64,000 nt of DNA, from positions 3,700 to 67,699 of the forward strand of contig JALWUQ010000088.1 of NCBI GenBank assembly GCA_026993075.1. The letters run 5' to 3'. The position numbers and the translations under genes were made by a program. Within the stretch, counting starts at the first letter, position 1. The number at the start of each line of letters is the position of its first letter. A model generated the notes under the pieces. That model was not told where the DNA came from and made no database searches. It saw nothing but the letters and a program-made list of their open reading frames with translations. Below are positions 45,191-61,582 of this stretch, one piece after another. The DNA comes from Campylobacteraceae bacterium (GTDB lineage Bacteria; Campylobacterota; Campylobacteria; Campylobacterales; JALSKU01).

Positions 45191-45273
45191 GCTCTAAAAT
45201 ATAGATATAACAATATACATAAAAATTTAAGTAAAAAGTGATTATAATACAAGCAATATTTAAAAGGTTTTAT

Positions 45274-45912: not shown

Positions 45913-45915
45913 TTT

Positions 45916-46554
45916 ATGTATTTAAAAGATATAGCACTATTTAGTAACTTAAATAAAGAAAATCTTGAGGCGATAGATAAAATATCAACATTAGTTGAAT
46001 TAAAAAGTGGAGATATTTTATTTTATGAAGGAGAAATGCCATACTTTTTACATGTCTTGATAAACGGAGTTATTAAGTTATACAAAACAGACTCAAAAGG
46101 AAGACAAAAATATATACATCAATTTACTCCTATATCTCTTATAGGTGAGTTAGCAAATTTTGAAAATGTAACTTTTCCGGCTACGGCCGAAGCAGTAACA
46201 AAAGTAGAAGTTTTAAAAATAGATTATAAAAGGTTACATGTTAATTTTTTTACAAACCCAAATATATCTTTCAGCATTATAAAATCATTATCGCAAAAAA
46301 TAAAAATTTTATCAAATTTTATTCATCAGGAAATGATATTATCAACCGAAGCTAAAGTGGTAAAGCTTATTGTTGAGCATAGTGAAATATTTGAAAAATT
46401 AAAAAATACAGATATAGCTGCAATAACTAATATTACTCCAGAAACATTATCAAGAATTTTGACAAAGCTTAAAAAATTAAATTATATTAAGTTTAATGAT
46501 AAACATGAGTTAGAAATTTTAGATAAAGAATCTTTAACTAAAATGTTTACTTAA
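45916..46554 (+). CDS. Crp/Fnr family transcriptional regulator (paralogue 2)
   Basis: Same architecture as paralogue 1, with HTH TPETLSRILTKLKK. It starts 3 nt after paralogue 1. Confidence 0.85.
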   Translation: MYLKDIALFSNLNKENLEAIDKISTLVELKSGDILFYEGEMPYFLHVLINGVIKLYKTDSKGRQKYIHQFTPISLIGELANFENVTFPATAEAVTKVEVLKIDYKRLHVNFFTNPNISFSIIKSLSQKIKILSNFIHQEMILSTEAKVVKLIVEHSEIFEKLKNTDIAAITNITPETLSRILTKLKKLNYIKFNDKHELEILDKESLTKMFT

Positions 46555-46558
46555 TAAT

Positions 46559-46588
46559 TAACCTTGCACATATACTTAAGGTCGGTTA
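46559..46588. repeat. MITE-like repeat, minimal copy C (termini only; forms a hairpin)
   Basis: TAACCTTGCAC-atata-CTTAAGGTCGGTTA. The left end matches copies A and B and the right end matches copy A. It lies between convergent genes, and its right TTA is the stop of the minus-strand small ORF. Confidence 0.65.
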
Positions 46589-46774
46589 AAAATATTCTAA
46601 AAACAAACCACCGATTAAAGATAACAATATAGTTAAAATAACTGTAAAAAGATTAAAATAGAAACTACTTAATGTATTATTTTTATCGAAAAATTCAACT
46701 ATTTTTATAGCTGGATAAATTGAAAAGAAAAGCAATACTATCGAAAAAACTAACAATAAAACTATCTCATTCAC
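46586..46774 (-). CDS. Small two-TM membrane protein
   Basis: 62 aa. GTG start preceded by AAAGGAG at an 8-nt spacing. Two hydrophobic helices. Confidence 0.5.
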   Translation of the reverse strand: MNEIVLLLVFSIVLLFFSIYPAIKIVEFFDKNNTLSSFYFNLFTVILTILLSLIGGLFLEYF

Positions 46775-46921
46775 TCTAAAATCTCCTTTTTAAAGACATC
46801 AAAATCATATTTTTTTGGATAAATAAGCAGATATAATCTTTTTTTTGATTATACAATAATACTATTAAATATTTGAATATATTATTAACTTACTGTCTTT
46901 TTTAATAATAATCTATAAAAA

Positions 46922-46935
46922 TTGATTTAAATCAA
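46922..46935. promoter_or_regulatory. FNR/CRP-type box upstream of the nor-nirS operon
   Basis: TTGATTTAAATCAA is a perfect TTGAT-N4-ATCAA palindrome. -10-like hexamers (TATAAT 46954, TACAAT 46959) lie 25-31 bp downstream of the box centre. Confidence 0.6.
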
Positions 46936-47010
46936 TGTTTTTATTTTATTTATATAATACAATACAAAATATAATTTGAATATTAAAAATTAAACTTAAG
47001 GATAATTAAG

Positions 47011-47337
47011 ATGTCAGGACCATTATATGTGCGACCAATTATTGCAGTAAATGATTTCCTTCCCATCTTTTTATCAGCAGCATCTATTTTAATATTTGGA
47101 TTGTTGTATGCAAGTATAGTCACGCTTGTTAAAATGCAAAAACTAAAAAAAATATATATGTTTTTAGCATACTTTTTTTGGATTTTGCAAGTTTACTGCA
47201 CATATTTTCTTACGGAAAAAATCCATAGTCAGCCTTTTACAGTTAAAGCGATGATTATAGCGATGGTTGCTTATCTTATAGTACCATATATATATTTCTA
47301 TTTGATAACTAAATCCGAAGAAAGATATGAAAAATAA
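47011..47337 (+). CDS. Three-TM membrane protein, first gene of the nor operon
   Basis: 108 aa, AAGGA SD, three hydrophobic helices. It ends 13 nt before the norC ATG. Confidence 0.55.
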   Translation: MSGPLYVRPIIAVNDFLPIFLSAASILIFGLLYASIVTLVKMQKLKKIYMFLAYFFWILQVYCTYFLTEKIHSQPFTVKAMIIAMVAYLIVPYIYFYLITKSEERYEK

Positions 47338-47350
47338 AAAAGGAGGACAA

Positions 47351-48052
47351 ATGTCTAAGAAAAAAGTTTCCGTTTGGTCGGATAATCGTTTTTGGCAAAG
47401 ATCTGCTGCTTGGGTAACAGGATTTGCATCACTTTTGTTGATATGGTTAACATTTAACACAATGGGTCAGATAACAATGGGAACCCAAAAAGATATAAAT
47501 AATCATATTGATAAAAGAGTCCCCTCAGCAACTGTAATTAACTATGAGATTCAGTATAAAATGAATCCCAGAAGAGGACATGAAGTACCTGTTATAGGTG
47601 GCGGTGACGGGAAAGGTAACTCTTTGTTTAAAGTAAAAGAGAAGTTTTTTGGAAGAGATAATTATACTCAAAAAGAAGCTGATGCACTTTTACATTTAGG
47701 TAAACTCACCGAACAGGCTAAAAACTGTATGGATTGTCATACACTTCTTGGTAACGGTGGATACTATGCACCTGATCTTACAAAAGCTTGGCTTGATCCT
47801 GCTTGGGGAAAAAACGGACCGATGCAGGCGATGACCGGTAAAAGCACAAAAGCAGAGGCAATGGCAGAGTTTCTACAGCACCCTGGCAAATATCCAACGC
47901 ATGCAAGAATGATGCCAAATCTTCATATAACAGCTAAAGAGGCCAAAGGACTTGTAGCATTTTTGAAGCAAATGTCCTCTATTGATACAAATGGCTTCCC
48001 GCGAGGCTTTGGAAAGATTAAAGAAGGAGTAGTTTATGCAAGGTCGAAATAG
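47351..48052 (+). CDS. norC: Nitric oxide reductase cytochrome c subunit (extended form)
   Basis: N-terminal anchor, heme motif CMDCH followed by TLLGNGGYYAPDL (NorC signature), and ATG 47351 after AGGAGG. At 233 aa it is longer than classical NorC. Confidence 0.85.
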   Translation: MSKKKVSVWSDNRFWQRSAAWVTGFASLLLIWLTFNTMGQITMGTQKDINNHIDKRVPSATVINYEIQYKMNPRRGHEVPVIGGGDGKGNSLFKVKEKFFGRDNYTQKEADALLHLGKLTEQAKNCMDCHTLLGNGGYYAPDLTKAWLDPAWGKNGPMQAMTGKSTKAEAMAEFLQHPGKYPTHARMMPNLHITAKEAKGLVAFLKQMSSIDTNGFPRGFGKIKEGVVYARSK

Positions 48053-49460
48053 TTATAAATATGAATCACAAAAATTAGCGAGTTGGTATTTTACGGTTGC
48101 TGTCATTCTTTTTGGTGCACAACTTCTCTTAGGCTTAGTTGCAGCTATTCAATTTATTTATCCATCTTTTTTATATGATATATTAGATTTTTCAATTGCA
48201 AGAATTATACATATAAATGCATTAGTAGTCTGGATGTTATATGCAATGATTGGTGCGGTATATTATCTTTTACCGGAAGAAACGGGCATAGAGACAGTGG
48301 GTATTGGTATGGCAAAACTGTTGTTTTGGATATTGACTCTTGCAGTTGCTGTGGTTGTTCTTGTATTTATCTTTGTTCAAATTGGACCTGGAAAAACAAG
48401 TACGATCTGGTTTATTACTGAGGGAAGGGAATATCTTGAAGCACCAAGATGGGCTGATATCGGTATAGTTGTTGTAGTTCTTGGCTTTTTAGCAAATACT
48501 TTTTTGACATCTATAAAAGGTAGAAGAACCGGTATTATGACTGTAATTTTGGCAGATATGATAGCACTCGCAGGCTTATATTTAGCAGGTATGTTTTTTA
48601 CTGATAATATCACAATGGATCAATACTGGTGGTGGTGGGTTATACACCTTTGGGTTGAAGCCACTTGGGAGGTTTATGTCGGTGCATTAGCCGCTTATGG
48701 TCTTATAAAAATAGTAAATGCAAATAGACAAGTTGTTGAAATGTGGCTTTGGATAGAAGTTGCAATGCTGTTTGGTTCAGGTATATTAGGTTTGGGTCAT
48801 CACTATTTCTGGATAGGAACTCCAGAGTATTGGTGGGAAATTGGTGCTTTATTTAGTGCATTGGAGCCAGTACCTTTGATAGGAATGTTTGTTCATGTAT
48901 TGTATGACTGGGGTAAAGAAAAAGGTATGGCAATGAATGAGGGAAAAGATACAACTTCCAATAATACTCCTGCACTTATGTGGCTTGTTTCAAATGGTTT
49001 TGGTAACTTTTTGGGAGCTGGTGTCTGGGGATTTTTCCACACACTTCCGCAAGTAAATATCTATACTCACGGAACTCAGTTCACAGCTGCACACGGTCAT
49101 CTTGCTTTCTTTGGAGCTTATGCAACTATATTAATCGCAATGTTTTATATAGGAGTTCAAGGTAAGCACGGTATCAAAAAACTTAGATCTACATTTGCCT
49201 CAAATATGGCAATATTTCTTTTAACATTTGGAATGCTTGGAATGACTGTAGCATTAACTATCGCTGGATATGAGCAGGTGCTTATCGCAAGAGCCCAACT
49301 TGGTGCTACTTGGAATGCATTCTTTTTAGCTCAAAATCAGCAATGGTTTGCACAAGCTATGGATTGGAGATTTTTTATGGGTATTGTAATGACAGTCGGA
49401 TTTGTTTATCTTGTTAAGGATTTATTGACAATTGCTAAAAATCCTAAAAATGTTTACTAA
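48036..49460 (+). CDS. norB: Nitric oxide reductase large subunit (cNOR)
   Basis: 12-TM heme-copper oxidase fold with conserved His-containing helices (HINALVVW, WWWVIHLWVE, GLGHHYFWIG, AAHGHLAFFGAY). Confidence 0.93.
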   Translation: MQGRNSYKYESQKLASWYFTVAVILFGAQLLLGLVAAIQFIYPSFLYDILDFSIARIIHINALVVWMLYAMIGAVYYLLPEETGIETVGIGMAKLLFWILTLAVAVVVLVFIFVQIGPGKTSTIWFITEGREYLEAPRWADIGIVVVVLGFLANTFLTSIKGRRTGIMTVILADMIALAGLYLAGMFFTDNITMDQYWWWWVIHLWVEATWEVYVGALAAYGLIKIVNANRQVVEMWLWIEVAMLFGSGILGLGHHYFWIGTPEYWWEIGALFSALEPVPLIGMFVHVLYDWGKEKGMAMNEGKDTTSNNTPALMWLVSNGFGNFLGAGVWGFFHTLPQVNIYTHGTQFTAAHGHLAFFGAYATILIAMFYIGVQGKHGIKKLRSTFASNMAIFLLTFGMLGMTVALTIAGYEQVLIARAQLGATWNAFFLAQNQQWFAQAMDWRFFMGIVMTVGFVYLVKDLLTIAKNPKNVY

Positions 49461-49471
49461 AAGGAGATTAT

Positions 49472-49639
49472 ATGTATCATGCAATGTTTGAACCATTTAC
49501 AGATGTAAATTGGAGTTTTTTTGGTTGGCTTAATGAAGGTCCTTTGACTTTAAGCCTTTTTTTACATACTATTATCGTTCTTCCAATGTTTTGGATTTAT
49601 TTCCAAGAAAAAAAGAGATTGGAAAACGAAAATCAGTAA
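49472..49639 (+). CDS. Small single-TM protein downstream of norB (CcoQ/FixQ-like architecture)
   Basis: Hand-translated 55-aa ORF MYHAMFEPFTDVNWSFFGWLNEGPLTLSLFLHTIIVLPMFWIYFQEKKRLENENQ, with AAGGAG 5 nt upstream of the ATG. It is below the ORF-track cutoff. It has one TM helix followed by a charged tail. Confidence 0.55.
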   Translation: MYHAMFEPFTDVNWSFFGWLNEGPLTLSLFLHTIIVLPMFWIYFQEKKRLENENQ

Positions 49640-49678
49640 ATAATATTGGGTAGGGAATATAAAATTTAAGGAGGAAAC

Positions 49679-51388
49679 ATGAAGTTAGTAAAGACGATTA
49701 GCATTGCTATAAGTTCGGTAGCAATAGTTGGGTTTATGCAGGCTAACGCATCGGGCATGGATTATGCTAAAGTATATAAACAGCAGTGTCAGGGTTGTCA
49801 CGGTGCAATGCATCAAGGGGGAGTTGGAGCAAATCTTAAACCAAAGGCATTAAAAAGAGCAAATGCTCAAATGTTAGCTGAGACAATACTCTATGGTAGA
49901 GCTGGAACTGCAATGCCAGCGTGGAAAAGTATATTTACAAAAAACGATGCTGCAGGTATGGTTAGTTGGCTTATAGATTGGAAAAATACAGTTAAACTTA
50001 AACTGTCTCTTAAAGATGTCAAAAAAACTTGGAAGAAATTGGCAAATAGGGTAGAATTATATAAGAAATATCCAAAACCAGTTGATGTAAAAAGTGTAAA
50101 AGATATCACAATAGCAGTAGAAAGAGATGCATCTTTAATAGATTTTATCGATGGAACAACTGGAAAAATTTTGAGCAGGCATAAAGCAGGATATGCTATT
50201 CACATTGCTGAAACAAATAAAAGAATTCCAAGATATGCTTATTGTATAAGTAGATCAGGAATACTCACAATGTTTGATTTAAATGCTCCAGGTCAGCCGG
50301 CACTTGCTAGTGTTCATGTTGGAGAAAGTAGTCGTGGTATAGCAGCTAGCCCAGATGGAAGATATGTGATGGTAGGAAATTATAATCCTGGTGGTGCAAT
50401 TTTACTTGATGCTATGACACTAGAGCCTTTAAAAGTGTATCCTACTTCGAGTGTAATAAATACTCAAGGGGATATTGGGCCAAGTAGAGTTGCTTATATA
50501 GCTCAAACACCATATAGACCATATTTTACTTTTGCATTAAAAGATGGTGGACATGTTTATGTTGTTGATTATTCAAAACCTGGTTTTCCTATCATAGCTG
50601 ATATCCCTAATATAGGTAAAATATTACATGATGCTTTTGAAAACGAAGGAGTTGATGAAGGTAGATTTGTTTATGTTGCGTCTCAAGGAAGCAATTTAAT
50701 GGGTGTAATAGATCTTAAAACATTAAAACTTGCTGCTAAGATTTATACAGGTCCTGGTACTAAACCACACCCTGGTCCTGGAGCTTCTTGGTATAATAAC
50801 AAATATGGTCAGCTTGAAGCTACAAATAGCATGAATACAGGTGATGTTGTAATATGGAATAAAGACAATGAAGTTGTAAAAAATGTTATAACTGCAGGAG
50901 GTGGTTTATTTGTAAATACAGGCGAAAATACTCCATACATTTGGTCTGATTGTGTTCTTGGCGGTCCGCATAATTACAATAAATTATATCTTATAAACAA
51001 GCAAACTTTAAAAGTTGATAGAATTATTGAAGTAGGCAAGAAAAAAGGTCATTTAGTAGATGCACATACGGGTAAGATTCTTCAAACTTGGGATGCAACT
51101 CAGTATAAAACTGTTAAACATAAGGAGATTAAATCTAAAATTTCTAATGAATATATAGTACCTTATACTGCCAAGCATGGTGTAAGAGTTGCTAAACCTG
51201 TTCAACCAAGACTTCTTCATGCTGAACCTGCAAACTTTGGTAAATGGATGACTATAAGTGAATGGACAACAGGTCGTATAGGTATTTACAATGCAAAAAC
51301 TGGTAAATTTATAAAGTATATTTACAATCTTACAACACCAACTTTTACATATTCAATTTCTCATAGAGAAAAAGTTCCTGGTGCTTAG
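49679..51388 (+). CDS. nirS: Cytochrome cd1 nitrite reductase
   Basis: Signal peptide, N-terminal heme c domain (CQGCHG...MPAW) and a long d1 beta-propeller domain, 569 aa. GGAGG SD. Confidence 0.93.
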   Translation: MKLVKTISIAISSVAIVGFMQANASGMDYAKVYKQQCQGCHGAMHQGGVGANLKPKALKRANAQMLAETILYGRAGTAMPAWKSIFTKNDAAGMVSWLIDWKNTVKLKLSLKDVKKTWKKLANRVELYKKYPKPVDVKSVKDITIAVERDASLIDFIDGTTGKILSRHKAGYAIHIAETNKRIPRYAYCISRSGILTMFDLNAPGQPALASVHVGESSRGIAASPDGRYVMVGNYNPGGAILLDAMTLEPLKVYPTSSVINTQGDIGPSRVAYIAQTPYRPYFTFALKDGGHVYVVDYSKPGFPIIADIPNIGKILHDAFENEGVDEGRFVYVASQGSNLMGVIDLKTLKLAAKIYTGPGTKPHPGPGASWYNNKYGQLEATNSMNTGDVVIWNKDNEVVKNVITAGGGLFVNTGENTPYIWSDCVLGGPHNYNKLYLINKQTLKVDRIIEVGKKKGHLVDAHTGKILQTWDATQYKTVKHKEIKSKISNEYIVPYTAKHGVRVAKPVQPRLLHAEPANFGKWMTISEWTTGRIGIYNAKTGKFIKYIYNLTTPTFTYSISHREKVPGA

Positions 51389-51391
51389 GAT

Positions 51392-51428
51392 ATATTACCT
51401 GCCATTTTTGGCAGGTAATATCTTTTCT
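51392..51428 (+). terminator. Rho-independent terminator/attenuator after nirS
   Basis: ATATTACCTGCCA-tttt-TGGCAGGTAATAT (13-bp stem) followed by CTTTTCTT. It begins 4 nt after the nirS stop. Confidence 0.75.
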
Positions 51429-51442
51429 TACTTGGTAAGCAG

Positions 51443-52540
51443 ATGAGAATAATTTTTTTTGTTTCTCTAATCTTTTCATTGGGATATTCAGTATATCTTT
51501 CAAATAAATCTTGTAAAGAGTGTCATAAAAAAATTTATATGGAGTATCAATACTCTTACCACTCAAAGGGTTATTTCAATGATATACTACACCGAAAAAT
51601 TGCAGATAAAATAAGTACAAAAAAATATGACTGTGCTATTTGCCATATGCCCGCAGCAAATAACATAAGAGATATTATAGATGGGGTAGATAGACCAAAT
51701 AGTGCAAATGTAACTAACAGTGATGCTGTATCTTGTTTTTTTTGTCATGAAATAGCTTATGTTAAAAAATCACATAGATTTAATATAAATATTTTAACAA
51801 AACAAGCCAGCGGTTACAAACCAAGCCTATATGGTAATTTGAAAAACCCCGCCAATAATGCAAAACACTTCTCCTTAGATAATCCTTTGTATGAAAATAA
51901 TGTTTGCAAAGGATGTCATTCACATAAGAGAAATGAAAACAACTTACTTATTTTTCGGGCTATGAAAGATAGCCAAACTTCAAAAGAGTGTATAAAATGC
52001 CATATGCCTTATATTCAAGGTGGCAATGAGGACATAAATGAAAAGGCAAGAAAAGTACATAGAAGTCACTATTTTAATGGTATTTATAGTGATGAAATGA
52101 GAAAAAAAAGTGTTAATTTAAAACTTGCTTTTAAGAAAAAGTATCATATAATTATAACTTTAAAAAATAAGATGGGTCATCCTCTTATAATACAATCAGC
52201 AAGAGAAATGTTTTTGAGAGTATTAATAAAAAGAGGAAATAAAATTGTTTGGAGTAATAAAAAAGATAAAAATTCATATTTCAAATATGATTATCTAAAA
52301 GGAAAAAATGATATTGTTATCCCTTATACCGCAACTTCATATAAGTGGTATAATAATTTAGGAGCGAGAAAAAGTAAAATTTATAATTATTATATAAAAA
52401 ATTTGAAAAAGGGTGATAAGGTAGATGTATCTTTTTATATTATTATTGCCAGAAAAAAGTGTTTAAATGATATAGGATTAGCTAATAATGGTCTATACAG
52501 ACCACTTTTAGCTAAAAAGATAGTAAAAATTGTACAGTAA
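51443..52540 (+). CDS. Membrane-anchored/secreted pentaheme c-type cytochrome with a non-heme C-terminal domain
   Basis: N-terminal hydrophobic segment and five CxxCH motifs (CKECH, CAICH, CFFCH, CKGCH, CIKCH) in the first ~190 aa. The last ~170 aa lack heme motifs. Confidence 0.75.
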   Translation: MRIIFFVSLIFSLGYSVYLSNKSCKECHKKIYMEYQYSYHSKGYFNDILHRKIADKISTKKYDCAICHMPAANNIRDIIDGVDRPNSANVTNSDAVSCFFCHEIAYVKKSHRFNINILTKQASGYKPSLYGNLKNPANNAKHFSLDNPLYENNVCKGCHSHKRNENNLLIFRAMKDSQTSKECIKCHMPYIQGGNEDINEKARKVHRSHYFNGIYSDEMRKKSVNLKLAFKKKYHIIITLKNKMGHPLIIQSAREMFLRVLIKRGNKIVWSNKKDKNSYFKYDYLKGKNDIVIPYTATSYKWYNNLGARKSKIYNYYIKNLKKGDKVDVSFYIIIARKKCLNDIGLANNGLYRPLLAKKIVKIVQ

Positions 52541-52550
52541 AGGTATAACA

Positions 52551-52862
52551 ATGAGAAAAACAATAATATTTTTAATATTTTTTTCAGTGTATTTGATGGC
52601 AAGTGACAATATGGCTATGAAAGTTTTTCAAGGATACTGCTGGGGATGTCATCATCAAACAGCACAAGCCTTTGGACCTTCTTTTAGAAGTATTGCAAAC
52701 AAAAGAACAAAAGGTGAGATAATCGCTCAGATAAGGGACCCTAAGGATACTTATAAAATGTTGGGGTATAAGATAAATTCAATGCCTGCATTTAATGATT
52801 TAAATAATACACAATTAAATGCAATCGTTACATATATATTAAGTTTTAAGGATAAAAAATGA
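52551..52862 (+). CDS. Monoheme class I cytochrome c (NirC-like, or the cytochrome domain of a split NirN)
   Basis: Signal peptide, CWGCH heme motif and a distal NSMPAF Met-ligand motif. ATG 52551 is preferred over the ORF-track start. Confidence 0.75.
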   Translation: MRKTIIFLIFFSVYLMASDNMAMKVFQGYCWGCHHQTAQAFGPSFRSIANKRTKGEIIAQIRDPKDTYKMLGYKINSMPAFNDLNNTQLNAIVTYILSFKDKK

Positions 52863-53944
52863 AGAAGGCAGTAATAGTTTTATTGATTTTAATAGTTTCA
52901 GTTTTAAATGCAAGAGATAAAATATTTGTAGTAGAGAGAGAAAATTCAACTCTTGCTGTAATTGATCATCATCTTTTAGTAGATGAGATAAAACATATGC
53001 ATAATTTCAATCATGCCGTTGTTAAATTTAAGGGAAAAGATGGTTATGTTATAACAAGAGATGGATATATAATCAAATTTAATCCCATTAAAGATGTGAT
53101 AGAAAAAGAGTACAGAACAAGTCCGAGTGCAATTGGATTTATAATAGGCAAAAACTTTGTTGCTGTTGCAAATTATGGTAGCAAAACTGTGGAAGTGGTA
53201 AGTAGAAATTTAGTACCGATTCAAAGCATAAAAACAAATAGTAGAAATGTAGGTATCAAATTATATAAAAATTATCTTGTTTTCGAATGCATGGATACGG
53301 ATGAAATATGGGTTATGAAAAATATACAACCAAAAGCTAAAAAACCTCATTTTGTAATCTATAAAAAATTTAAAAATGTAGGAAAAGTCCCTTTTGATGC
53401 TCTAATAGATAAAAATCTTTATGTATCAGGATTTTTTAATTCACCTTTTATAGGTGTATTAAACTTAAATACTATGAAATATAAAACCATACCATTAAAT
53501 TTGGGAAAAAGAGATAGGGTGCTGAAAGTACCTCATTTTGGGTTTTGGAGCGTTTCAAAAGGATACTTTTTTATTCCTGCCGTGGGTGCTAGAAAAGTTT
53601 TTGTATTTACCCATAAGTTTAAGCTTGTAAAAGCTATAAATGTTATAGGCAATCCAGTTTTTACCTCTTTAAGTCCAAATAAAAAATATCTTGCAGTTAC
53701 CTTTAGCGGTAAAGATTTTCCAAGAGTTCAGATAGTTGATACAAAAACTCTAAAAATTATAAAAAATTTTAAATTTAAGGGTATGGTTTTACATGTAAGA
53801 TGGTCAACTAATGGTAAATATTTGTATGTTTCAGTTAATGGTGCCAATGAAGTACTGGGTATAAATACACATGGTTGGTGGAAAAACTTCTCATGGCCTG
53901 TGCCTAGATCATCAGGAATTTTTATATATAAAACTGGAAATTGA
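52859..53944 (+). CDS. nirF: Heme d1 biosynthesis protein, cd1-type beta-propeller (NirF/NirN-like)
   Basis: Signal peptide, 361 aa with repeated beta-strand propeller character, no CxxCH, located between the cytochrome c gene and nirJ. Its ATG overlaps the upstream stop (ATGA). Confidence 0.7.
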   Translation: MKKAVIVLLILIVSVLNARDKIFVVERENSTLAVIDHHLLVDEIKHMHNFNHAVVKFKGKDGYVITRDGYIIKFNPIKDVIEKEYRTSPSAIGFIIGKNFVAVANYGSKTVEVVSRNLVPIQSIKTNSRNVGIKLYKNYLVFECMDTDEIWVMKNIQPKAKKPHFVIYKKFKNVGKVPFDALIDKNLYVSGFFNSPFIGVLNLNTMKYKTIPLNLGKRDRVLKVPHFGFWSVSKGYFFIPAVGARKVFVFTHKFKLVKAINVIGNPVFTSLSPNKKYLAVTFSGKDFPRVQIVDTKTLKIIKNFKFKGMVLHVRWSTNGKYLYVSVNGANEVLGINTHGWWKNFSWPVPRSSGIFIYKTGN

Positions 53945-55071
53945 TTATGTTAAGAATATCTAATCTTATTGATTCTGTCATTAATGATAAAAAAGAGAGA
54001 TTACTTGATGGCAATATAATAATATGGAATTTTACAAATCGCTGTAATCTTTCATGCCATCATTGCTACTCTTATGCAGATCCAAGCTCAAAAGATTTTT
54101 TAACTACTGAATTTATTCTTGATTCTATTAAAGATTTAAAAAAAGCAAATGTAAAATTTGTTATTTTCAGTGGCGGTGAACCGCTTATAAGAAAAGATAT
54201 CTTTGAAATTGCTGATGCTATGAGAAAAGAGGGAATAATTACATATCTTTCTACAAATGGTCTTTATGTAAATGAAAAAAATGTTAAAGATATTATAGAT
54301 AAATTTAATTATATAGGAATAAGCATAGATGGAATTGAGAAAGTCCATGATAAGTTCAGAGGTTTGGACGGAGCTTACAAAAAAAGTATAGCTGCTATAA
54401 AATTGATACAACAAAATGGAGGTAATGCAGGCATTAGGTTTACTATGACAAAAGAGACTGAAGATAGTTTTTATGATATATTTAAACTTGCAGAAGATAT
54501 TGGTGTTGACAAGCTATATCTTTCTCACCTTGTTTATTCTGGAAGAGGACTTGAAAATTTAAAAATTGACATAAGCAAAGAAAAAAGATTAGAATTTGTA
54601 AATTTTATAATAGATAAGGCTATGCAGTATCAGCGTGATAATGTCAATATAGATATAGTCACAGGCAATATGGAAATGGATGCGATAATACTGCTTGAGA
54701 AATTCTCAAAAATTTACCCGGAATTAGAAAATAAAATGATCAAAAAACTCAGAGACTGGGGTGGCAATAGTGCCGGAAAAAGACTGGGTAATATTGATTT
54801 TATTGGTCTTGTCAAACCAGATCCTTTTTTTCCTTTTACAATAGGAGATATGAATGAAGAGAGTTTTGATAAGATTTGGCTCAATAAAGATAATGATATA
54901 CTAAGAAGACTTAGAAAAAATCCAAGAAGCATTAGTGGGAAATGTACAAATTGTAATGTTATAGATATATGTAATGGTGGCAGTAGGAGTAGAGCTTATG
55001 CATTACATAATGATTTGTGGGCAGAGGATCCGTCTTGTTATCTAAATGATTTTCAAAGAGGGATTAAATAA
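53941..55071 (+). CDS. nirJ: Radical SAM heme d1 biosynthesis protein NirJ
   Basis: Radical SAM motif CNLSCHHCY and a C-terminal Cys cluster (CTNCNVIDICNGG). Lies in the nir context. Confidence 0.85.
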   Translation: MIMLRISNLIDSVINDKKERLLDGNIIIWNFTNRCNLSCHHCYSYADPSSKDFLTTEFILDSIKDLKKANVKFVIFSGGEPLIRKDIFEIADAMRKEGIITYLSTNGLYVNEKNVKDIIDKFNYIGISIDGIEKVHDKFRGLDGAYKKSIAAIKLIQQNGGNAGIRFTMTKETEDSFYDIFKLAEDIGVDKLYLSHLVYSGRGLENLKIDISKEKRLEFVNFIIDKAMQYQRDNVNIDIVTGNMEMDAIILLEKFSKIYPELENKMIKKLRDWGGNSAGKRLGNIDFIGLVKPDPFFPFTIGDMNEESFDKIWLNKDNDILRRLRKNPRSISGKCTNCNVIDICNGGSRSRAYALHNDLWAEDPSCYLNDFQRGIK

Positions 55072-55826
55072 TGGGTATGGCATATTTGACTGGATCGGGA
55101 CCAGGTGATCTAGAACTTTTAACACTCAAAGCAAATAAAATAGTGCAAGAAGCCGATGTTATTATATATGATAGGCTCGCAAATCCTGATATATTAAAAA
55201 AAGCAAAAAGTGGATGTAAATTTATTTATGTTGGTAAAGAAGATGGAAAGCACACGATACCTCAGGAGGAAATTAATAAAATAATATATAAAAATACTAT
55301 TGAAAATGATATTGTAGTAAGGTTAAAAGGCGGCGATCCTTTCGTTTTTGGAAGAGGAGGCGAAGAGGGGAAATATTTACATGACAGAGGTATTGACTTT
55401 GAAGTGATACCTGGAGTTACTTCGGCTATAAGTGTACCTGCATACGCAGGTATACCGGTGACTCACAGAGGAGTGGCAGTTTCATTTAAAGTTATAACCG
55501 GACACGAAGCACCAGGAAAAGAGCATTCACAAATTGATTGGGATTCGCTAAAAGGTGATGGCACAATCATATTCCTAATGGGTTTACATAATTTGTCCAA
55601 AATAAGCAGAAAATTAATACAAATAGGAAAACCGAAAGATTTTCCCATTGCAGTTATAAGTAAAGGTACGACCAAAGAGCAAAAAGTTGTGGTATCTACA
55701 TTGGAAAATATAGTCAAAGAATCAAAAGATTTAAAAACACCTGCACTCATAATAGTGGGGAATGTTGTTAAATTGAGAAAAGATTTAGATTGGTTCAAAT
55801 CCCAAAAAAAGAGTGAACAAAATTAA
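55071..55826 (+). CDS. nirE: Uroporphyrinogen-III C-methyltransferase (SUMT; NirE/CobA)
   Basis: GSGPGD.ELLT.KA......AD.IIYDRL, LKGGDPF.FGRGGEE and PGVTSA motifs. Confidence 0.9.
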   Translation: MGMAYLTGSGPGDLELLTLKANKIVQEADVIIYDRLANPDILKKAKSGCKFIYVGKEDGKHTIPQEEINKIIYKNTIENDIVVRLKGGDPFVFGRGGEEGKYLHDRGIDFEVIPGVTSAISVPAYAGIPVTHRGVAVSFKVITGHEAPGKEHSQIDWDSLKGDGTIIFLMGLHNLSKISRKLIQIGKPKDFPIAVISKGTTKEQKVVVSTLENIVKESKDLKTPALIIVGNVVKLRKDLDWFKSQKKSEQN

Positions 55827-56166
55827 TTTGTTTTCTATTTTTTAAATTCAATGTTTTAATGGTCTGATTTTTATCATTATTTATAGACAAAACAGATCCT
55901 GTCAACTTAAGATGTTTTTTGCCCCACTGTCTTTCAAGTTGATCAAGCCTTTTAAAAACTATTTCATTACTTGGTTTTTCTTTAGTCTTAGTTTTCTCGT
56001 TAATTATAGTCAGACCTCCTAATCTTTTTTCGAGCCTATAAGGAATATAGGCAGATAAAGCATTCATAACCACTTTATTTTTTGTTTTTGGCATAGCATT
56101 TTTAAATGCTATAAAACTTAAAAACATAAATACAAATATTAAACCTATAAACATCTTTCTACTCAT
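55795..56166 (-). CDS. Hypothetical membrane-anchored protein, translationally coupled to sirC
   Basis: 123 aa with an N-terminal TM (FIGLIFVFMFLSFIAF) and a K-rich soluble part. Its ATG overlaps the sirC stop (ATGA). Its 3' end overlaps the nirE 3' end by 32 nt. Confidence 0.45.
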   Translation of the reverse strand: MSRKMFIGLIFVFMFLSFIAFKNAMPKTKNKVVMNALSAYIPYRLEKRLGGLTIINEKTKTKEKPSNEIVFKRLDQLERQWGKKHLKLTGSVLSINNDKNQTIKTLNLKNRKQINFVHSFFGI

Positions 56167-56735
56167 TGTTTTTTCCTTTTTTTGTCAAAAAAAAGTCTTG
56201 CTTTTTCATCTAAATATTTCATCCTTAAAGCTCCTTTTGGAAGTTTTTTCCTATAATTTTTCATATTGACTAAAAAGTTATCAATACCATTAGGCAAAAT
56301 TTGTTCTATATACTTTCTTAAGTACTTGGCAACAGCTGGTGAAGAACCGGAGGTGGAAACAGATATAGTCAAATCACCTTTTTTTATGTACGAGGGAAAG
56401 ATAAAATCACAATAATCGACTGAGTCAACAGCATTACATAAAATATGTTTTTTTGAAGCTTCTGTAAAAATATCTTTTTGTATTTTTACTTTATCTACTG
56501 CAATTATAACAATATCATAGCCATTTATATTATTTTTTTCATATTTTTTTTCAATAGTGGATAAATTATTTCTAAAAGCGATTGTTTTGATTTCGTCACT
56601 GATTTTTATTGCTATTATTGATATATTTTTAGTAAAATCAAGTAAGTGTACAAGCTTATCTTTTGCAATTTTTCCACCTCCTACAATGAGAACTTTTTTA
56701 TTATCAATTTTAATATATGCAGGAAAATAATTCAT
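56163..56735 (-). CDS. sirC: Precorrin-2 dehydrogenase / sirohydrochlorin ferrochelatase (CysG N-terminal / SirC-Met8 type)
   Basis: FP.Y......KVLIVGGGKIA..K...LL NAD-binding start and 190 aa are typical of the siroheme synthase N-terminal domain. Confidence 0.8.
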   Translation of the reverse strand: MNYFPAYIKIDNKKVLIVGGGKIAKDKLVHLLDFTKNISIIAIKISDEIKTIAFRNNLSTIEKKYEKNNINGYDIVIIAVDKVKIQKDIFTEASKKHILCNAVDSVDYCDFIFPSYIKKGDLTISVSTSGSSPAVAKYLRKYIEQILPNGIDNFLVNMKNYRKKLPKGALRMKYLDEKARLFFDKKRKKQ

Positions 56736-56788
56736 TTACAACTCTTTTTTAATTTGATATATTATAACATATTTTTATTTATTAAACT

Positions 56789-56802
56789 TTGATATTAATC
56801 AA
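56789..56802. promoter_or_regulatory. FNR/CRP-type box shared by the divergent sirC and ccp promoters
   Basis: TTGATATTAATCAA is a perfect TTGAT-N4-ATCAA. TATAAT hexamers start 29.5 bp from the box centre on both strands (plus strand 56825-56830; minus strand 56766-56761, as TGTTATAAT). Confidence 0.65.
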
Positions 56803-56874
56803 TGATTTAATTTTGATATTTATATATAATTAATACAAAAGATATGATTATTGGCTAAAAAAGGAGTTTTATGG

Positions 56875-57951
56875 ATGAAGAGTATTATTGTTCCGATATT
56901 TATAGTATTAATTATCCTGATAACAATAATCTTTATGCCTGTTTTTTTGCCAAAAAGAGGTCTAAAAAAATTTACAGATAATCAATTAAGGCAAACAGCA
57001 CTCTCAAGAAATATGTTACCTGTGCCAAAAACTTATAATAAATTATTAAAATTGGTAAATACGAAAGATAATCCAATGACAAAAGACAAGATATTACTTG
57101 GAAAAAAACTTTTTAATGATACGATATTATCAAAAGATAACACTATCAGCTGTGCATCTTGTCACATATTAAAAAATGGAGGTGCTGACAACCTTCCAAC
57201 TGCAATAGGATACAAAGGAAGAGCTAACCCTTTTCATTTAAATACACCAACAGTTTTAAATGCTGCATTGGCAAAAGAATTAAATTGGGATGGAAGTGCA
57301 AAAACTGTAGAAATTCAAGCAGATGGTCCATTGCAGGCACATTTTGAAATGAATTCAATACCTAAAACAATAGTACAAAAACTAAAAAGCAATCCATACT
57401 ACTCAAAAGAATTTAAAAAGATTTTTACAGGAGGGGTTAGTTTTGAAAATGTAAAAAAGGCAATAGGGGCTTACGAAAGAACTCTTCTAACTAGAGGGTC
57501 TTATGATAGATTTTTAGAAGGAGACAATAATGCAATAAGTAAAAAAGCAAAAAAAGGATTTGCCCTTTTTATAAATTTGGGTTGCAAAGGTTGTCATACA
57601 GGGATGAGTGTAGGTGGTCAGAGTTTACAAAGATTTCCTTTAAGACAGTGTGCCACCATATATGAGACTGATTGTATGTCAGGCAATAGAGTATTTCCAT
57701 TTAAAAATATTGGTGGTTTTTTGGGTAAAGACAATATGCAACTTTTTCGTGTTCCAATACTAAGAAATATTGCAAGAACCGCACCTTACTTCCATAATGG
57801 TATAGTAAAAAAATTAAGTAAAGCAGTAAAAATAATGGCTATTCATCAAATAGGCGTAAATCTTTCCAAAATTCAAATTAGTGAGATAGTGGCATTTTTA
57901 AAAACATTAAATGGTAAAATAGTTGATTATAATATAACTTCAAAGGAATAA
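56875..57951 (+). CDS. ccp: Diheme cytochrome c peroxidase (CCP/MauG family)
   Basis: Two heme motifs (CASCH, CKGCH), FRVP.LRN and APYFHNG motifs. ATG 56875 follows AAAGGAG. Confidence 0.88.
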   Translation: MKSIIVPIFIVLIILITIIFMPVFLPKRGLKKFTDNQLRQTALSRNMLPVPKTYNKLLKLVNTKDNPMTKDKILLGKKLFNDTILSKDNTISCASCHILKNGGADNLPTAIGYKGRANPFHLNTPTVLNAALAKELNWDGSAKTVEIQADGPLQAHFEMNSIPKTIVQKLKSNPYYSKEFKKIFTGGVSFENVKKAIGAYERTLLTRGSYDRFLEGDNNAISKKAKKGFALFINLGCKGCHTGMSVGGQSLQRFPLRQCATIYETDCMSGNRVFPFKNIGGFLGKDNMQLFRVPILRNIARTAPYFHNGIVKKLSKAVKIMAIHQIGVNLSKIQISEIVAFLKTLNGKIVDYNITSKE

Positions 57952-57952
57952 A

Positions 57953-58948
57953 ATGAGAAATCAAGTGCTATATGAATTGCAAAAAAATTTTCCACTTGTT
58001 CAAAGACCATTTGAACAAATCGCAAAAAAACTAAATATGGATGAAGATGAAGTGATAAAAATTGTACAAGAAGAGAAAGAAAATAAGACCATAAGACAAA
58101 CATCTGCTATTTTTGATACAAGAAGATTGGGATACAGTTCATCATTGGTGGCTTTTAAAGTTGATAACAGTGAGATTGAAGATACAGTTAAAATATTAAA
58201 TTCTCACCCTGGAATATCACATAATTATGAAAGAAATCATGACTTTAATATCTGGTTTACCCTTGCTGTCTCCCCCGAAAGCTCTTTTGGTTTGGAAGGA
58301 ACTATAAAATTGCTGGCAAGGTTATGTAATGCAGTAGAATATATAACACTACCTACATTAAAACTTTTTAAAATTTCAGTCAAACTTGATACGACAGGTA
58401 AAGCTGCAAAAAAAGAAAAAATTGAAAAGAAAAAATTTATAGAATTAGAGTTAAATGAACTTCATAAAAAAGTTATTAAATATTCACAAGAAGATATAAA
58501 GATAGAAAAAGAGCCTTTTAAGGATATGATTGATAAAATTGGTATAAATTATGAAACTTTTTTTAAAACTTTAGATGAACTTAAAAAATGTGGTGCAATG
58601 AGAAGATTTGCTACAATCTTAAATCATAGGAAAGCAGGTTTTAGTGCAAATGCCATGGTTGTTTGGGATATAGATGAAGAAAAAGCTGAAAAAATGGGTG
58701 AAAAAATGGCAACTTTCAGTGCCGTTAGCCACTGTTATTTAAGACCAAAATATAAAAATTGGCCTTACAATATATTTTCTATGGTACATGGTAAAACAAA
58801 AAAAGAGACAAATTTAATAGTAAAAGATATAGAAAATGAAGTAAAATACAATTCTAATCAATATCTTTATTCTTCAAGAGAATTTAAAAAAGTAAGAGTA
58901 AAATACTATACCGATGATACAATAAAATGGGAAGATAAGTATAAATAA
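57953..58948 (+). CDS. Siroheme decarboxylase, fused two-module NirD/L/G/H (AhbA/B-like, Lrp/AsnC fold)
   Basis: Two tandem modules each start with a winged-helix segment (L..LQ..FPLV.RPF..IA, and HKKVIKYSQEDIKIEKEPF) followed by an HPG.SH.YER-type segment. 331 aa, in the nir context. Confidence 0.8.
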   Translation: MRNQVLYELQKNFPLVQRPFEQIAKKLNMDEDEVIKIVQEEKENKTIRQTSAIFDTRRLGYSSSLVAFKVDNSEIEDTVKILNSHPGISHNYERNHDFNIWFTLAVSPESSFGLEGTIKLLARLCNAVEYITLPTLKLFKISVKLDTTGKAAKKEKIEKKKFIELELNELHKKVIKYSQEDIKIEKEPFKDMIDKIGINYETFFKTLDELKKCGAMRRFATILNHRKAGFSANAMVVWDIDEEKAEKMGEKMATFSAVSHCYLRPKYKNWPYNIFSMVHGKTKKETNLIVKDIENEVKYNSNQYLYSSREFKKVRVKYYTDDTIKWEDKYK

Positions 58949-59068
58949 CTAACCTTACGCACTTTTTTCTCGAAAAGTCCTACTTTTCGTAGCTTTAGGG
59001 GGTTGTAGGGACTTTGAGTTTCTGCCACTATAACGAGCTTTGTTTATTATAGTGAGTAAGGTCAGTTG
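58946..59068. repeat. MITE-like intergenic repeat, copy B (with a 42-nt internal insertion)
   Basis: 58946-59014 aligns to 6088-6157. The right terminus TAAGGTCAGTTG (59057-59068) matches the right ends of copies A and C. The insert 59015-59056 carries its own CACTATAA/TTATAGTG hairpin and TGAG at both ends. The left TAA is the nirDL stop codon. Confidence 0.75.
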
Positions 59069-59097
59069 TAATTTTAAAATTTAAAGGAGATTTTTAT

Positions 59098-59469
59098 ATG
59101 AAGGAATTTTTTGAGTTAGAGATAGGGTATATAGTAATTGCACTATTTTTTCTTGCGGTAACTGCTATCGTTACAACAAGAAGTTTTATGCCAAAAGGAG
59201 CATTTAAAAAAGGTATGATTGCAGTTGGAATCATTGTTGTGGCATTCATTTTATTTCATTATTATTCTACAGTAAGTAGGATGGAAATGATTGCAAAAGA
59301 GTTTAATAGTGGCAAAACGATACTTTGTGAAAATAGAGAAATGTTAAATGGCCCTAATGCAATCATTATTTTAAAAAAAGCTGGTTGGAGCTTAAAAAAC
59401 GGTATATTTACAAATCCTGAGTTTCATAGAGATTTTTATAGTGCAAGGTGTGCAGTAGATTTAAAATGA
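59098..59469 (+). CDS. Two-TM membrane protein with a Cys-containing soluble tail
   Basis: 123 aa, AAGGAG SD, two hydrophobic helices, then a ~60-aa domain with two Cys. Its TGA overlaps the ATG of the downstream Crp/Fnr gene. Confidence 0.55.
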   Translation: MKEFFELEIGYIVIALFFLAVTAIVTTRSFMPKGAFKKGMIAVGIIVVAFILFHYYSTVSRMEMIAKEFNSGKTILCENREMLNGPNAIIILKKAGWSLKNGIFTNPEFHRDFYSARCAVDLK

Positions 59470-60131
59470 TTGATCTAAAAATAAAAAAGAATTTAAAAAA
59501 AATTGAAATTTTTAATTGTTTAAATGAAGATGAATTTGATTTATTGGCATCTATTTCCAAATTAAAAATATATAGTTCACAAAATACTATTTTTTATGAG
59601 AAAGAAAAGCTTGACTTTATATATTTTTTGATAAATGGTGAGGTTAAGTTATATAAAATTGATAGATTTAACAGTGAGGTATTTTTAAATAAATTAGAAA
59701 AAAATTCTTTTATATATACTGTATCAAATATGTGCGGAGACAGTGAATATGGAGCCTTTTATAGTGTGGAGGCATTAAGTGATTGTGAAGTATTACTGAT
59801 AGATGTAAAAAAATTTAAGTCTCTTTTTTTAACAAAATATGAAATTCTAATGAGAATTTTAGAAGAATCATATAAATCTATATTGCAATTACAATATATT
59901 TTAAATAGAGACATAGTATTTGATGCAATGGCAAAAGTTGCATATATGCTCTCAAACAACTTGGATTCATTCAATAAAATGAAAAAGCATGAAATTGCAT
60001 ATTATCTGCATATTCAGCCGGAAACACTCTCTAGAATCTTAAAAAAATTAAGCAGAAATGAGTTTATCAAATCAGAAAACGGTAAAATTATTATCTGTAA
60101 TATTGATAAATTAAAAAAAATATACGAATAG
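59466..60131 (+). CDS. Crp/Fnr family transcriptional regulator (paralogue 3)
   Basis: cNMP-binding-like barrel (IYFLINGEVKLYK) and HTH QPETLSRILKKLSR. No N-terminal Cys cluster. ATG 59466 is preferred over the ORF-track start. Confidence 0.8.
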   Translation: MIDLKIKKNLKKIEIFNCLNEDEFDLLASISKLKIYSSQNTIFYEKEKLDFIYFLINGEVKLYKIDRFNSEVFLNKLEKNSFIYTVSNMCGDSEYGAFYSVEALSDCEVLLIDVKKFKSLFLTKYEILMRILEESYKSILQLQYILNRDIVFDAMAKVAYMLSNNLDSFNKMKKHEIAYYLHIQPETLSRILKKLSRNEFIKSENGKIIICNIDKLKKIYE

Positions 60132-60143
60132 GACTTATGTAAA

Positions 60144-61487
60144 ATGTTGAATAAGATAAGCAGTAAAATAAATTTTATAGGCGGGGCATTATCGTTTGTT
60201 GTAATTATGAATGTGATACTGACAATATACTTAACTAGAAAACAAGAAGGCGATTCTTATATCGTAAATATAGCCGGACGCCAGAGAATGTTATCTCAAA
60301 AGATAACAAAAGAGATATTTTACACAAAAAGTACCGGGAGCTTTGATTTTGAAACCTTAAACAGTGATATGAAAATTTTTCAAAAGAATTTATATATATT
60401 GATTGACGGAAATAAAAAATTAAATGTTTATAAGCCCCCAAATAAAGAAATTCAAGATAAACTAAAACAGGTTTTAAATATATGGGTACCTTTTCAAGGT
60501 AAAATCAAAAAACTTGAACAATATACAAATGATATCAAAAAAAGTAAAGAAATCATGATGAATAAATTTAATGAAATTTTAAAGATTTCAGATAAGGTAG
60601 TAAAAGCTATGGTAGATTATAATTTACCGGGTAGTTATATTGATCTTTCCGGCAGACAAAGAATGCTATCTCAAAGAATGGGGCTTTATTTTATAAGATA
60701 TCTTGATACTTCAAATCAAAATGATTTTTATATATACAATAAATCAATGAAACTTTATAATAATACAATAATTAAATTTGTAAATAATAATAAAATAAAA
60801 AGCAATAAAAATTTATATAAAATAGTTTCTTTAAATTATAAATATTGGAAAAATTTTCAAATTTATATAAGAAACTTAATGGAAAAAGAAAATAAAATAC
60901 AAAATACAATCAAATATATTCATGAAAACAATATAAAGCTTTTAAAAAATATGAATGACGCGGTTTGGCTATACACAAGTTATAGTGAATCGAAAAATAA
61001 TTTTATTAAGAATTTCTTGTATATTTCCGGCGTGTTGGCATTATTAATTATTTTATATACTTATATGATTGCAAAAAATTTAGAAAAACATGTCTTAAAC
61101 TTTGTAAGTAGAGCAAAAGAATTATCAAATAAAGACCCAATCTCTGAAAATGGTGAGTTGACTATAGATTTTTGTGGTGAAGATGAATTAAAAGAAGTAT
61201 CAACACATATTAATAAATTTGCCAATAAAGTAAAAAATGCTTATAATTATTCCAATGAAGCTTTAAAAAGAGCTGAATTAGCAGCAAAAGAATTACAAAT
61301 AATCGCTGATGATATTGAAATGGCAATAGATGATTCTGGTGTAAAAGATAAGAAAAATTTTGGTAAAAATATAGATGCAACTGAAGATATAGCCATAGAA
61401 TCTGCCGAAAGTTTACTTCATGTTTCTAATATGATTAAAAGGTTAAAAGAGAATCTTTCTGATATTTTAGACTCATATTCAAAATAA
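60144..61487 (+). CDS. Membrane sensor with two NarX-like N-terminal (PilJ-type) periplasmic modules and a HAMP-like segment, but no recognisable output domain
   Basis: TM1 at aa ~11-31. GRQRMLSQ occurs at aa 45-52 and 170-177. TM2 at aa ~291-312. A HAMP-like ...GEDELKEVSTHINKFANKV... is followed by a ~70-aa acidic helical tail. I see no H-box, ATPase or MCP hairpin motif. Confidence 0.65.
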   Translation: MLNKISSKINFIGGALSFVVIMNVILTIYLTRKQEGDSYIVNIAGRQRMLSQKITKEIFYTKSTGSFDFETLNSDMKIFQKNLYILIDGNKKLNVYKPPNKEIQDKLKQVLNIWVPFQGKIKKLEQYTNDIKKSKEIMMNKFNEILKISDKVVKAMVDYNLPGSYIDLSGRQRMLSQRMGLYFIRYLDTSNQNDFYIYNKSMKLYNNTIIKFVNNNKIKSNKNLYKIVSLNYKYWKNFQIYIRNLMEKENKIQNTIKYIHENNIKLLKNMNDAVWLYTSYSESKNNFIKNFLYISGVLALLIILYTYMIAKNLEKHVLNFVSRAKELSNKDPISENGELTIDFCGEDELKEVSTHINKFANKVKNAYNYSNEALKRAELAAKELQIIADDIEMAIDDSGVKDKKNFGKNIDATEDIAIESAESLLHVSNMIKRLKENLSDILDSYSK

Positions 61488-61510
61488 TCATAAATTTATA
61501 ATTTAATTTC

Positions 61511-61524
61511 TTGACTTAAGTCAT
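61511..61524. promoter_or_regulatory. FNR-like palindrome in the napA promoter
   Basis: TTGACTTAAGTCAT has a perfect 12-bp palindromic core TGACTTAAGTCA. Its half-site TTGAC differs from the TTGAT of the other two boxes. -10-like hexamers at 61540 (TATAAT) and 61548 (TAAAAT). Confidence 0.5.
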
Positions 61525-61582
61525 AGATTTTTGAATTCTTATAATGATAAAATTGCTTCATATCATTTTATAAGGAGAGAAT

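Follow-up and report, generated by a model that had tools for sequence, protein, structure and literature searches.

Conserved FNR-type palindromes as predicted binding sites of adjacent Dnr/Nss-type regulators at the denitrification genes of an uncultured Campylobacterota lineage

In Wolinella succinogenes, a member of the Campylobacterota, the nap, nrf, and nos genes are induced on nitrate, nitric oxide (NO), and nitrous oxide (N2O) by three Crp/Fnr paralogues, NssA, NssB, and NssC (PMC6682613, PMC8139620). How the Nss regulators sense these compounds is described as an open question in reviews (PMC8139620). In Nitrosophilus labii HRV44, the Crp/Fnr genes NIL_RS03760 and NIL_RS03815 were found upstream of nap and nor, and the first base of a TTGA-N6-TCAA sequence lies 48-49 nucleotides (nt) 5′ of the napA, norE, and nosB starts, as inferred from RNA sequencing; the consensus was credited to a Wolinella study by Kern and Simon 2016 (PMC11539149). 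Here, we describe three FNR-type palindromes (boxes 1, 2, and 3) and three Crp/Fnr genes (crp1, crp2, and crp3) among the denitrification genes of a Campylobacteraceae bacterium (assembly GCA_026993075.1), located in a 64,000-nt stretch of contig JALWUQ010000088.1 (positions 3,700 to 67,699), hereafter called the window. The boxes are most likely binding sites of the adjacent proteins, which are predicted to be activators of the Dnr/Nss type that lack an iron-sulphur (Fe-S) cluster.

The locus resembles that of Wolinella in that three Crp/Fnr paralogues without the FNR cysteine cluster are placed over genes of nitrogen oxide (N-oxide) respiration. Wolinella is an ammonifier, however, whereas the window organism is a denitrifier with nor, cd1 nirS, and haem d1 genes, and the crp1-crp2 tandem is clade-specific. 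For comparison, 80 loci were collected by scanning metagenomes with aligned crp2 homologues, and nine more by look-ups of crp3 and crp2 homologues, giving about 90 in total (designated by L numbers). The nine added loci come from contigs of five relatives, all of which share the gene order of the window. A scan of genome contigs with the Ccp protein returned two loci only, one of them a 96% relative, and was of little value for footprinting. A Wolinella-type nrf context was found among the related loci, in the order crp2-like gene, box, nrfHAIJ, crp3, pilJ. The 48-49 nt box distance in N. labii corresponds to a box centre at -41.5 or -42.5, the same as that predicted here. N. labii differs in having two regulators rather than three, and the report on it mentions neither a PilJ-domain partner, nor a nap-specific TCAT variant, nor a bidirectional box (PMC11539149). 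By synteny with N. labii, crp2, which is located before nor, would be NssB-like; none of the homologue database matches of crp2 and crp3 bears an Nss name.

All three regulators matched PF00027 and PF13545 above the Pfam gathering cut-offs, which places them in the Crp/Fnr superfamily, and the PETLSR(V/I)L recognition helix, with its E--SR pattern, is present in each, as had been proposed from the sequence. The FNR-type N-terminal cysteine cluster (C-X2-C-X5-C) is absent from all of them. The original prediction went further and called the proteins Cys-less, a description that holds for crp2 and fails for crp1 and crp3, where four cysteines are scattered along the chain. Within the first 40 residues, crp1 has no cysteine and crp3 has one, so that neither is an FNR in the strict sense, and none of 82 Crp-like proteins encoded in the related loci has more than one cysteine in this region. 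The class II promoters of E. coli FNR share with this locus the TTGAT-N4-ATCAA consensus, the E--SR residues, and the -41.5 geometry, but the missing cluster excludes direct oxygen sensing via [4Fe-4S] here. The full-length solved structure closest to crp2 is that of Pseudomonas aeruginosa DNR (3dkw), at only ~20-25% identity. DNR senses NO through haem, whereas no cofactor could be assigned to crp1, crp2, or crp3, and no oxygen-sensing ANR/FNR partner was seen in the 64-kilobase (kb) window. Residues P175, E176, S179, and R180 of crp2 align to R180, E181, G184, and R185 of CRP, and PETLSR corresponds, by inspection, to VETISR of FNR. According to the specificity rule of Rodionov et al., Pro/Ser180 and Glu181 go with motifs of the TTGAC-N4-GTCAA type (PMC1274295), and the P and E of the window proteins fit this rule.

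The original prediction had assigned the locus to Dnr/NnrR/NssR-like regulators. The Dnr/Nss part of this assignment agrees with what was found: an E--SR helix, and TTGA-N6-TCAA boxes before N-oxide reductase genes and beside a regulator gene, together with the footprinting, fixed geometry, gene-box linkage, and literature discussed here. Campylobacter jejuni NssR, on the other hand, is a poor model. NssR belongs to the same phylum, to the Crp/Fnr family, and is a nitrosative-stress activator whose sensing mechanism has been called unknown (PMC4601167). However, it carries A180/Q181, and its binding site in front of globin genes is TTAAC-N4-GTTAA (PMC1274295). The window boxes, TTGA[TC]-N4-[AG]TCA[AT], differ from the NssR box in their G at position 3 and their C at position 12, and precede respiratory reductase genes, and the window proteins carry P/E in the helix, which sets them apart from NssR.

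The boxes were found where the original prediction had placed them (Table 1), and each is followed by a predicted -10 hexamer. If transcription begins 7 nt beyond the hexamer, the centre would fall at -41.5 for box 1 and for box 2 on both strands, and at -42.5 for box 3, which would be the class II position of a Crp/Fnr activator. At box 2, a TATAAT is found at an equal 22-nt distance on both strands (56761-56830), and this single dimer site probably serves both divergent promoters, sirC and ccp-nirDL. The box promoters contain only a -10 element and no recognisable -35. A generic sigma-70 promoter scan was uninformative in this AT-rich DNA (126 matches, against 111 expected). Before napA, a TATAAT at 61540-61545 is not conserved in relatives, which instead retain TG-n-TA[AG]AAT with the 23-nt spacing. 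The 22-nt gap between box and -10 is also found in 13 of 15 other nor promoters, and, as a gap to a TAnAAT hexamer, it recurs in nearly all related loci.

The geometry also bears on whether the boxes might be operators, with the Crp/Fnr proteins sitting on the -35 region and repressing until a signal releases them. Such a role would suit a site that overlaps the promoter, and one Crp/Fnr gene of N. labii was inferred to be negatively related to nosZ (PMC11539149). However, class II promoters that depend on an activator characteristically lack a recognisable -35, as these do, the box is held rigidly at 22 nt from the -10, which activator contact requires and repression does not, and Wolinella nss mutants lose induction (PMC6682613, PMC8139620). 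Repression from these sites is, thus, improbable.

The number of perfect TTGAT-N4-ATCAA palindromes in the entire window is weakly above chance (three seen, 0.49 expected; one of 100 shuffles reaches three). The window is 95% coding, and its intergenic DNA amounts to ~2.96 kb. Two perfect boxes were found there (0.015 expected; 0.015% of 20,000 shuffles reach two). A composite motif, defined as a perfect TTGA-N6-TCAA core with a TAnnnT -10 at a gap of 22-23 nt, occurs three times in the window (0.09 expected; at most two in any of 200 shuffles). When one mismatch was allowed, only the nap box and three further sites were added; the latter (17668, 30363, and 37970) were rejected, as all lie within coding sequence. 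The claim that housekeeping intergenic regions are free of boxes was borne out, a one-mismatch site at 12327 being the sole near match there, and no perfect TTGA-N6-TCAA core was found in any other intergenic region of the window. A one-mismatch site at 46789-46802 was also rejected; it lies 21 nt from the start of a 62-amino-acid open reading frame (ORF) and lacks the -10 phasing. The third perfect palindrome, TTGATGTATATCAA at 63807-63820, had been overlooked by the original prediction. It is located within the napA coding sequence, and because the homologous position is degenerate in 11 other napA genes, it was rejected as a functional site and attributed to chance.

Among the related loci, a perfect TTGA-N6-TCAA core precedes the orthologue of the first nor-cluster gene in 15 of 15 loci, and a perfect core is found 5′ of nirS in all five loci in which nirS directly follows a crp gene. 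All 17 napA upstream regions contain a core match, 10 of them perfect and seven with one core mismatch, which is the TCAT variant in six of the seven. No perfect site was found in ~100 upstream regions of the control genes norC, norB, nirF, nirJ, nirE, yggT, and slt. Among 68 crp2-like genes with enough flanking sequence, 49 have a perfect box within 300 nt, compared to a background of 1.7 sites per 10 kb. In other lineages, the module of box and -10 also heads nrfH (nrfHAIJ) and genes for a NapC/NirT-type cytochrome, porin-like proteins, and small DUF-like proteins. In the syntenic relatives, in which Crp3 is 66-68% identical to that of the window, the box sequence is identical even though the flanks fall to ~35-60% identity: box 1 (TTGATTTAAATCAA) is unchanged in L092, L093, and L094, box 2 is kept in L004, L086, L088, and L090 and missing in L087, and box 3, although its flanks have diverged, is invariant in L004, L086, L087, L088, and L090. 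That the boxes arose by chance in AT-rich spacers might still be suspected from the whole-window count, which is only marginally over the shuffled expectation, and from the perfect copy at 63807, which is indeed a chance occurrence. Intergenic enrichment, the composite test, and the conservation across ~90 loci contradict this explanation, and, since the boxes are conserved in related loci, it is refuted for practical purposes, with a negligible residual probability.

Table 1. Regulators, boxes, predicted -10 elements, and predicted target genes, in window coordinates
Feature	Position	Strand	Description
crp1	45274-45912	+	PETLSRVL; 4 scattered Cys; only in the clade of the window, always in tandem with crp2
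crp2	45916-46554	+	PETLSRIL; 0 Cys; widespread clade, genes adjoining nor, nirS, nap, or nrfH
crp3	59466-60131	+	IQPETLSRIL; 4 scattered Cys; from a separate, widespread clade, with ~30% identity to crp1 and crp2
PilJ447	60144-61487	+	447-amino-acid membrane protein with two PilJ/NarX-type periplasmic modules; conserved partner of crp3
Box 1	46922-46935		TTGATTTAAATCAA; perfect TTGAT-N4-ATCAA; 5′ of the nor-nirS gene string
Box 2	56789-56802		TTGATATTAATCAA; perfect TTGAT-N4-ATCAA; common to the divergent sirC and ccp promoters
Box 3	61511-61524		TTGACTTAAGTCAT; variant TTGAC-N4-GTCAT, promoter-proximal half-site imperfect; 5′ of napA
Predicted -10, box 1	46958-46963	+	TACAAT, 22 nt after the box; predicted start ~46970; box centre -41.5
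Predicted -10, ccp-nirDL	56825-56830	+	TATAAT, 22-nt gap from box 2; predicted start ~56837
Predicted -10, sirC-orf123	56761-56766	-	TATAAT preceded by TG, 22-nt gap; predicted start ~56754
Predicted extended -10, nap	61545-61553	+	TG-A-TAAAAT, 23 nt after box 3; predicted start ~61560; box centre -42.5
Target string 1	47011-51388	+	108-amino-acid membrane protein, norC (47327), norB (48036), 55-amino-acid ORF (49473-49640), cd1 nirS (49679)
Terminator-like hairpin	51392-51421	+	13-base-pair stem and T-run; directly 3′ of nirS, before the multihaem cytochrome and haem d1 genes
Haem d1 gene string	51443-55826	+	multihaem cytochrome and cytochrome c, then nirF, nirJ, and nirE for haem d1 synthesis; boxless
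Leftward target of box 2	55795-56735	-	sirC-like precorrin-2 dehydrogenase (56163-56735) and 123-amino-acid ORF
Rightward target of box 2	56851-59469	+	CCP_MauG di-haem peroxidase (likely ATG 56875), nirDL-like sirohaem decarboxylase (57953-58948)
Rightward target of box 2, remainder		+	149-nt structured insert (58949-59097), 123-amino-acid membrane protein (59098-59469)
napA	61583-64000	+	target of box 3; truncated by the window end

The joint occurrence of boxes and regulator genes also bears on which protein uses the boxes. They might be bound by a protein whose gene lies beyond the window, such as an oxygen-sensing Fe-S FNR, leaving the neighbouring crp genes incidental; the view is limited to 64 kb of the genome, and E. 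coli FNR has an identical box consensus. Against this, the linkage of boxes to regulator genes recurs across dozens of lineages, whether the context is nor, nirS, nap, or nrfH, and the 82 Crp-like proteins of these loci include none with more than one cysteine among the first 40 residues, which makes an outside regulator very improbable.

For the favoured explanation, namely activation by the adjacent Dnr/Nss-type proteins, the following mechanism is proposed. Each box would overlap the -35 region, and the bound dimer would bring in RNA polymerase in the manner of a class II activator, its centre lying near -41.5 at nor, ccp, and sirC, and near -42.5 at nap. From the box 1 promoter, transcription would cover the nor genes and nirS and reach the haem d1 genes by read-through. 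Box 2 would drive sirC, for the supply of sirohaem to haem d1, in the leftward direction and ccp-nirDL in the rightward direction, a unit that would extend into crp3-pilJ in relatives. Box 3 would drive the nap operon. Because the base-contacting positions of the recognition helix (P, E, S, and R) showed no difference when the crp1, crp2, and crp3 clades were compared, the three paralogues most likely converge on the same core and, by analogy with the Nss proteins, would differ in the signal that is sensed (nitrate, NO, or N2O).

It had been proposed that the T-to-C difference at position 5 of the box sorts targets among the paralogues. This proposal failed, since nor boxes have T in the clade of the window and C in most others, and since, among relatives within this clade, nirS boxes have C while nor boxes have T. 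A different feature does distinguish the nap promoters, which were compared in the window and 20 loci that are not phylogenetically independent. Behind crp3-pilJ, the nap promoters read TTGAC-N4-GTCAT followed by AG and a 23-nt gap in 11 of 11 cases, whereas those without pilJ read TCAA in 10 of 10, with a 22-nt gap in the seven in which a -10 was found. The 11 pilJ-linked promoters fall in two sub-clades whose flanks are only ~35-45% identical. Because the loci are not phylogenetically independent, the association of nap box and pilJ is a lead, not proof. Some form of target discrimination among the paralogues would nevertheless be possible, because the TCAT/23-nt variant co-occurs strictly with the crp3-pilJ pair.

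A refined partition can be formulated on this basis, in which Crp3 and PilJ447, the membrane protein encoded by pilJ, serve nap via TTGAC-N4-GTCAT at -42.5, while Crp1 and Crp2 serve the perfect boxes (nor, ccp/sirC). We regard it as a tentative proposal with the odds against it. The strict 11/11 and 10/10 split across sub-clades with so diverged flanks speaks for it, as does the pairing of crp3 with pilJ in the loci listed below. On the other side, the PETLSR base-contacting residues are identical across the three clades, and no protein feature explains a different or asymmetric half-site; position 5 varies freely between T and C within one target class; in Wolinella, the enzymes affected do not differ from one Nss protein to the next (PMC6682613); and the pilJ/box correlation is uncorrected for phylogeny.

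Several points weigh against the favoured explanation as a whole. The loci were gathered via crp2-like genes, and targets near a regulator are therefore over-sampled; the lack of phylogenetic independence noted for nap applies to the whole collection. The transcription starts were inferred from -10 hexamers in DNA of 70% A+T, and the evidence for this organism is computational. The strictly conserved nap variant argues against a full equivalence of the paralogues. Another Crp/Fnr protein may be encoded elsewhere in the genome, of which 64 kb were in view. Finally, because the N. labii Crp/Fnr gene was inferred to relate negatively to nosZ (PMC11539149), regulation of the opposite sign is possible as well.

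Of 15 loci that could be tested, 14 encode a PilJ447 homologue within ~10 nt after crp3, as do L086-L091 (the pair is present in the window, L032, L035, L038, L040, L042, L044, L049, L054, L055, L057, L058, L060, L064, and L086-L091), and the pair is located either upstream of napA or directly behind the last gene of nrfHAIJ. About 1000 homologues were found for the crp3 clade, including some from Sulfurospirillum. PilJ447, whose homologues in the related loci are of ~450 amino acids, has two transmembrane helices and matches PF13675 twice (E-value 1e-23). The motif AG-x-x-R-M-L-S-Q is present twice, and the P-box arginines R48 and R173 are both invariant. Sequence and fold matches include PilJ (7zjr/8wdf), the McpN-LBD (6gcv), and NarQ (5iji). 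In the structural model, the cytoplasmic part consists of a HAMP-like segment and a helical hairpin, ~100 residues in all. No Pfam match to a histidine-kinase (HisKA/HATPase) or MCP output domain was obtained for PilJ447, even at an E-value of ≤5, and all 120 PilJ447 homologues among the matches listed contain PF13675 only, the full-length ones being ~450 amino acids long. PilJ447 thus shares with NarX, NarQ, and McpN the periplasmic four-helix PilJ/P-box module with its invariant arginine, but these proteins carry a kinase or MCP signalling domain, whereas the PilJ447 gene is fixed beside a Crp/Fnr gene. Annotation pipelines mislabel proteins of this type as chemotaxis protein or nitrate sensor kinase.

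It is conceivable, though we hold it to be rather doubtful, that Crp3 and the output-less PilJ447 form a two-protein nitrate-sensing switch that acts on nap through the dedicated box variant. The NarX/McpN-type modules of PilJ447 would bind periplasmic nitrate, and its short cytoplasmic helical tail would control Crp3 directly, for example by membrane sequestration and release, whereupon Crp3 would activate nap via TTGAC-N4-GTCAT with the 23-nt gap. If true, such a switch would account for the nitrate response of a Crp/Fnr regulator that has no obvious ligand.

The gene names given in the original prediction (norC/norB, cd1 nirS, nirF/J/E, sirC-like, CCP_MauG, and napA) proved right in Pfam and NCBIfam searches; in NCBIfam, the regulators matched only below threshold and norC and norB had no match. 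The first gene after box 1, however, is not norC but the 108-amino-acid membrane-protein ORF at 47011. The proposed nor-nirS operon is supported, in this lineage, by the loss of a box between norB and nirS. In relatives, a perfect box with a -10 is found directly 5′ of nirS (L086 257-363, L087 1333-1438, and L088 987-1093), while the norB-nirS spacer (49641-49678 in the window) is shorter and boxless in the window, L004, and L094, and nirS of the window probably depends on the nor promoter. The hairpin after nirS may work by attenuation and thereby set the balance between enzyme and accessory genes. Given this hairpin and its T-run, the haem d1 genes may depend on read-through, by which they are probably transcribed. 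The 55-amino-acid ORF between norB and nirS (49473-49640) is a conserved membrane ORF without an assigned family, found in all syntenic relatives. A second conserved membrane ORF without a family, the 62-amino-acid ORF at 46586-46774 on the minus strand, is found after nirE in L017, L019, L023, and L030. The two ORFs are probably components of the nor/nir machinery.

Downstream of box 2, both ccp and the box are absent in L087 (8511-8605), whereas in L088 (8175-8602) ccp has decayed to a pseudogene remnant and the box is retained. Because of these two cases, ccp appears to be a dispensable passenger of the box-2 promoter, which would then drive nirDL. In relatives, ccp-nirDL, a 125-amino-acid gene, crp3, and pilJ are packed gap-free behind box 2, which would place crp3-pilJ under Nss-box control, as a cascade or a positive loop. 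No box was found 5′ of crp1 in any relative. In Pseudomonas, ANR activates dnr, an order that the possible cascade here resembles; it is possible because crp1 and crp2 are boxless while crp3, in relatives, lies in a box-headed operon. In the window, co-transcription from nirDL to crp3 is uncertain, because a 149-nt insert (58949-59097) separates nirDL from the 123-amino-acid gene. This GC-rich insert folds at -36 kcal/mol, is absent in relatives, where nirDL and the next gene abut, and has a 33-nt partial copy at 6101-6133. A search of positions 44000-64000 against Rfam gave no match, including for the insert, which could be either a terminator or a short repeat element.

Further boxes were seen in the wider collection. 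In L075-L085, a crp2-like clade of ~40% identity, a perfect TTGATTTAAATCAA lies ~20 nt before the called crp start, which suggests either autoregulation or mis-called starts. Perfect boxes with the 22-nt gap also precede genes for ~110-amino-acid proteins of unknown function in L014 (2532-2936) and L075 (1558-1966). These proteins, which begin with ...GATxPFYTY... and have a Cys motif at their end, may also belong to the regulon.

The arrangement of box and regulator is already published for Campylobacterota (Wolinella, Nitrosophilus), and an uncultured lineage is added here, which helps to annotate denitrifiers of vents and the subsurface. The comparative result on the crp3-PilJ pair and the nap variant is the more useful product. 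The box, together with the 22-nt gap to the -10, provides a sharp and portable predictor of N-oxide-regulated promoters in the Campylobacterota, and the crp3-PilJ pair, with its strictly co-occurring nap variant, is a testable candidate for the nitrate-sensing step of Nss-type regulation.

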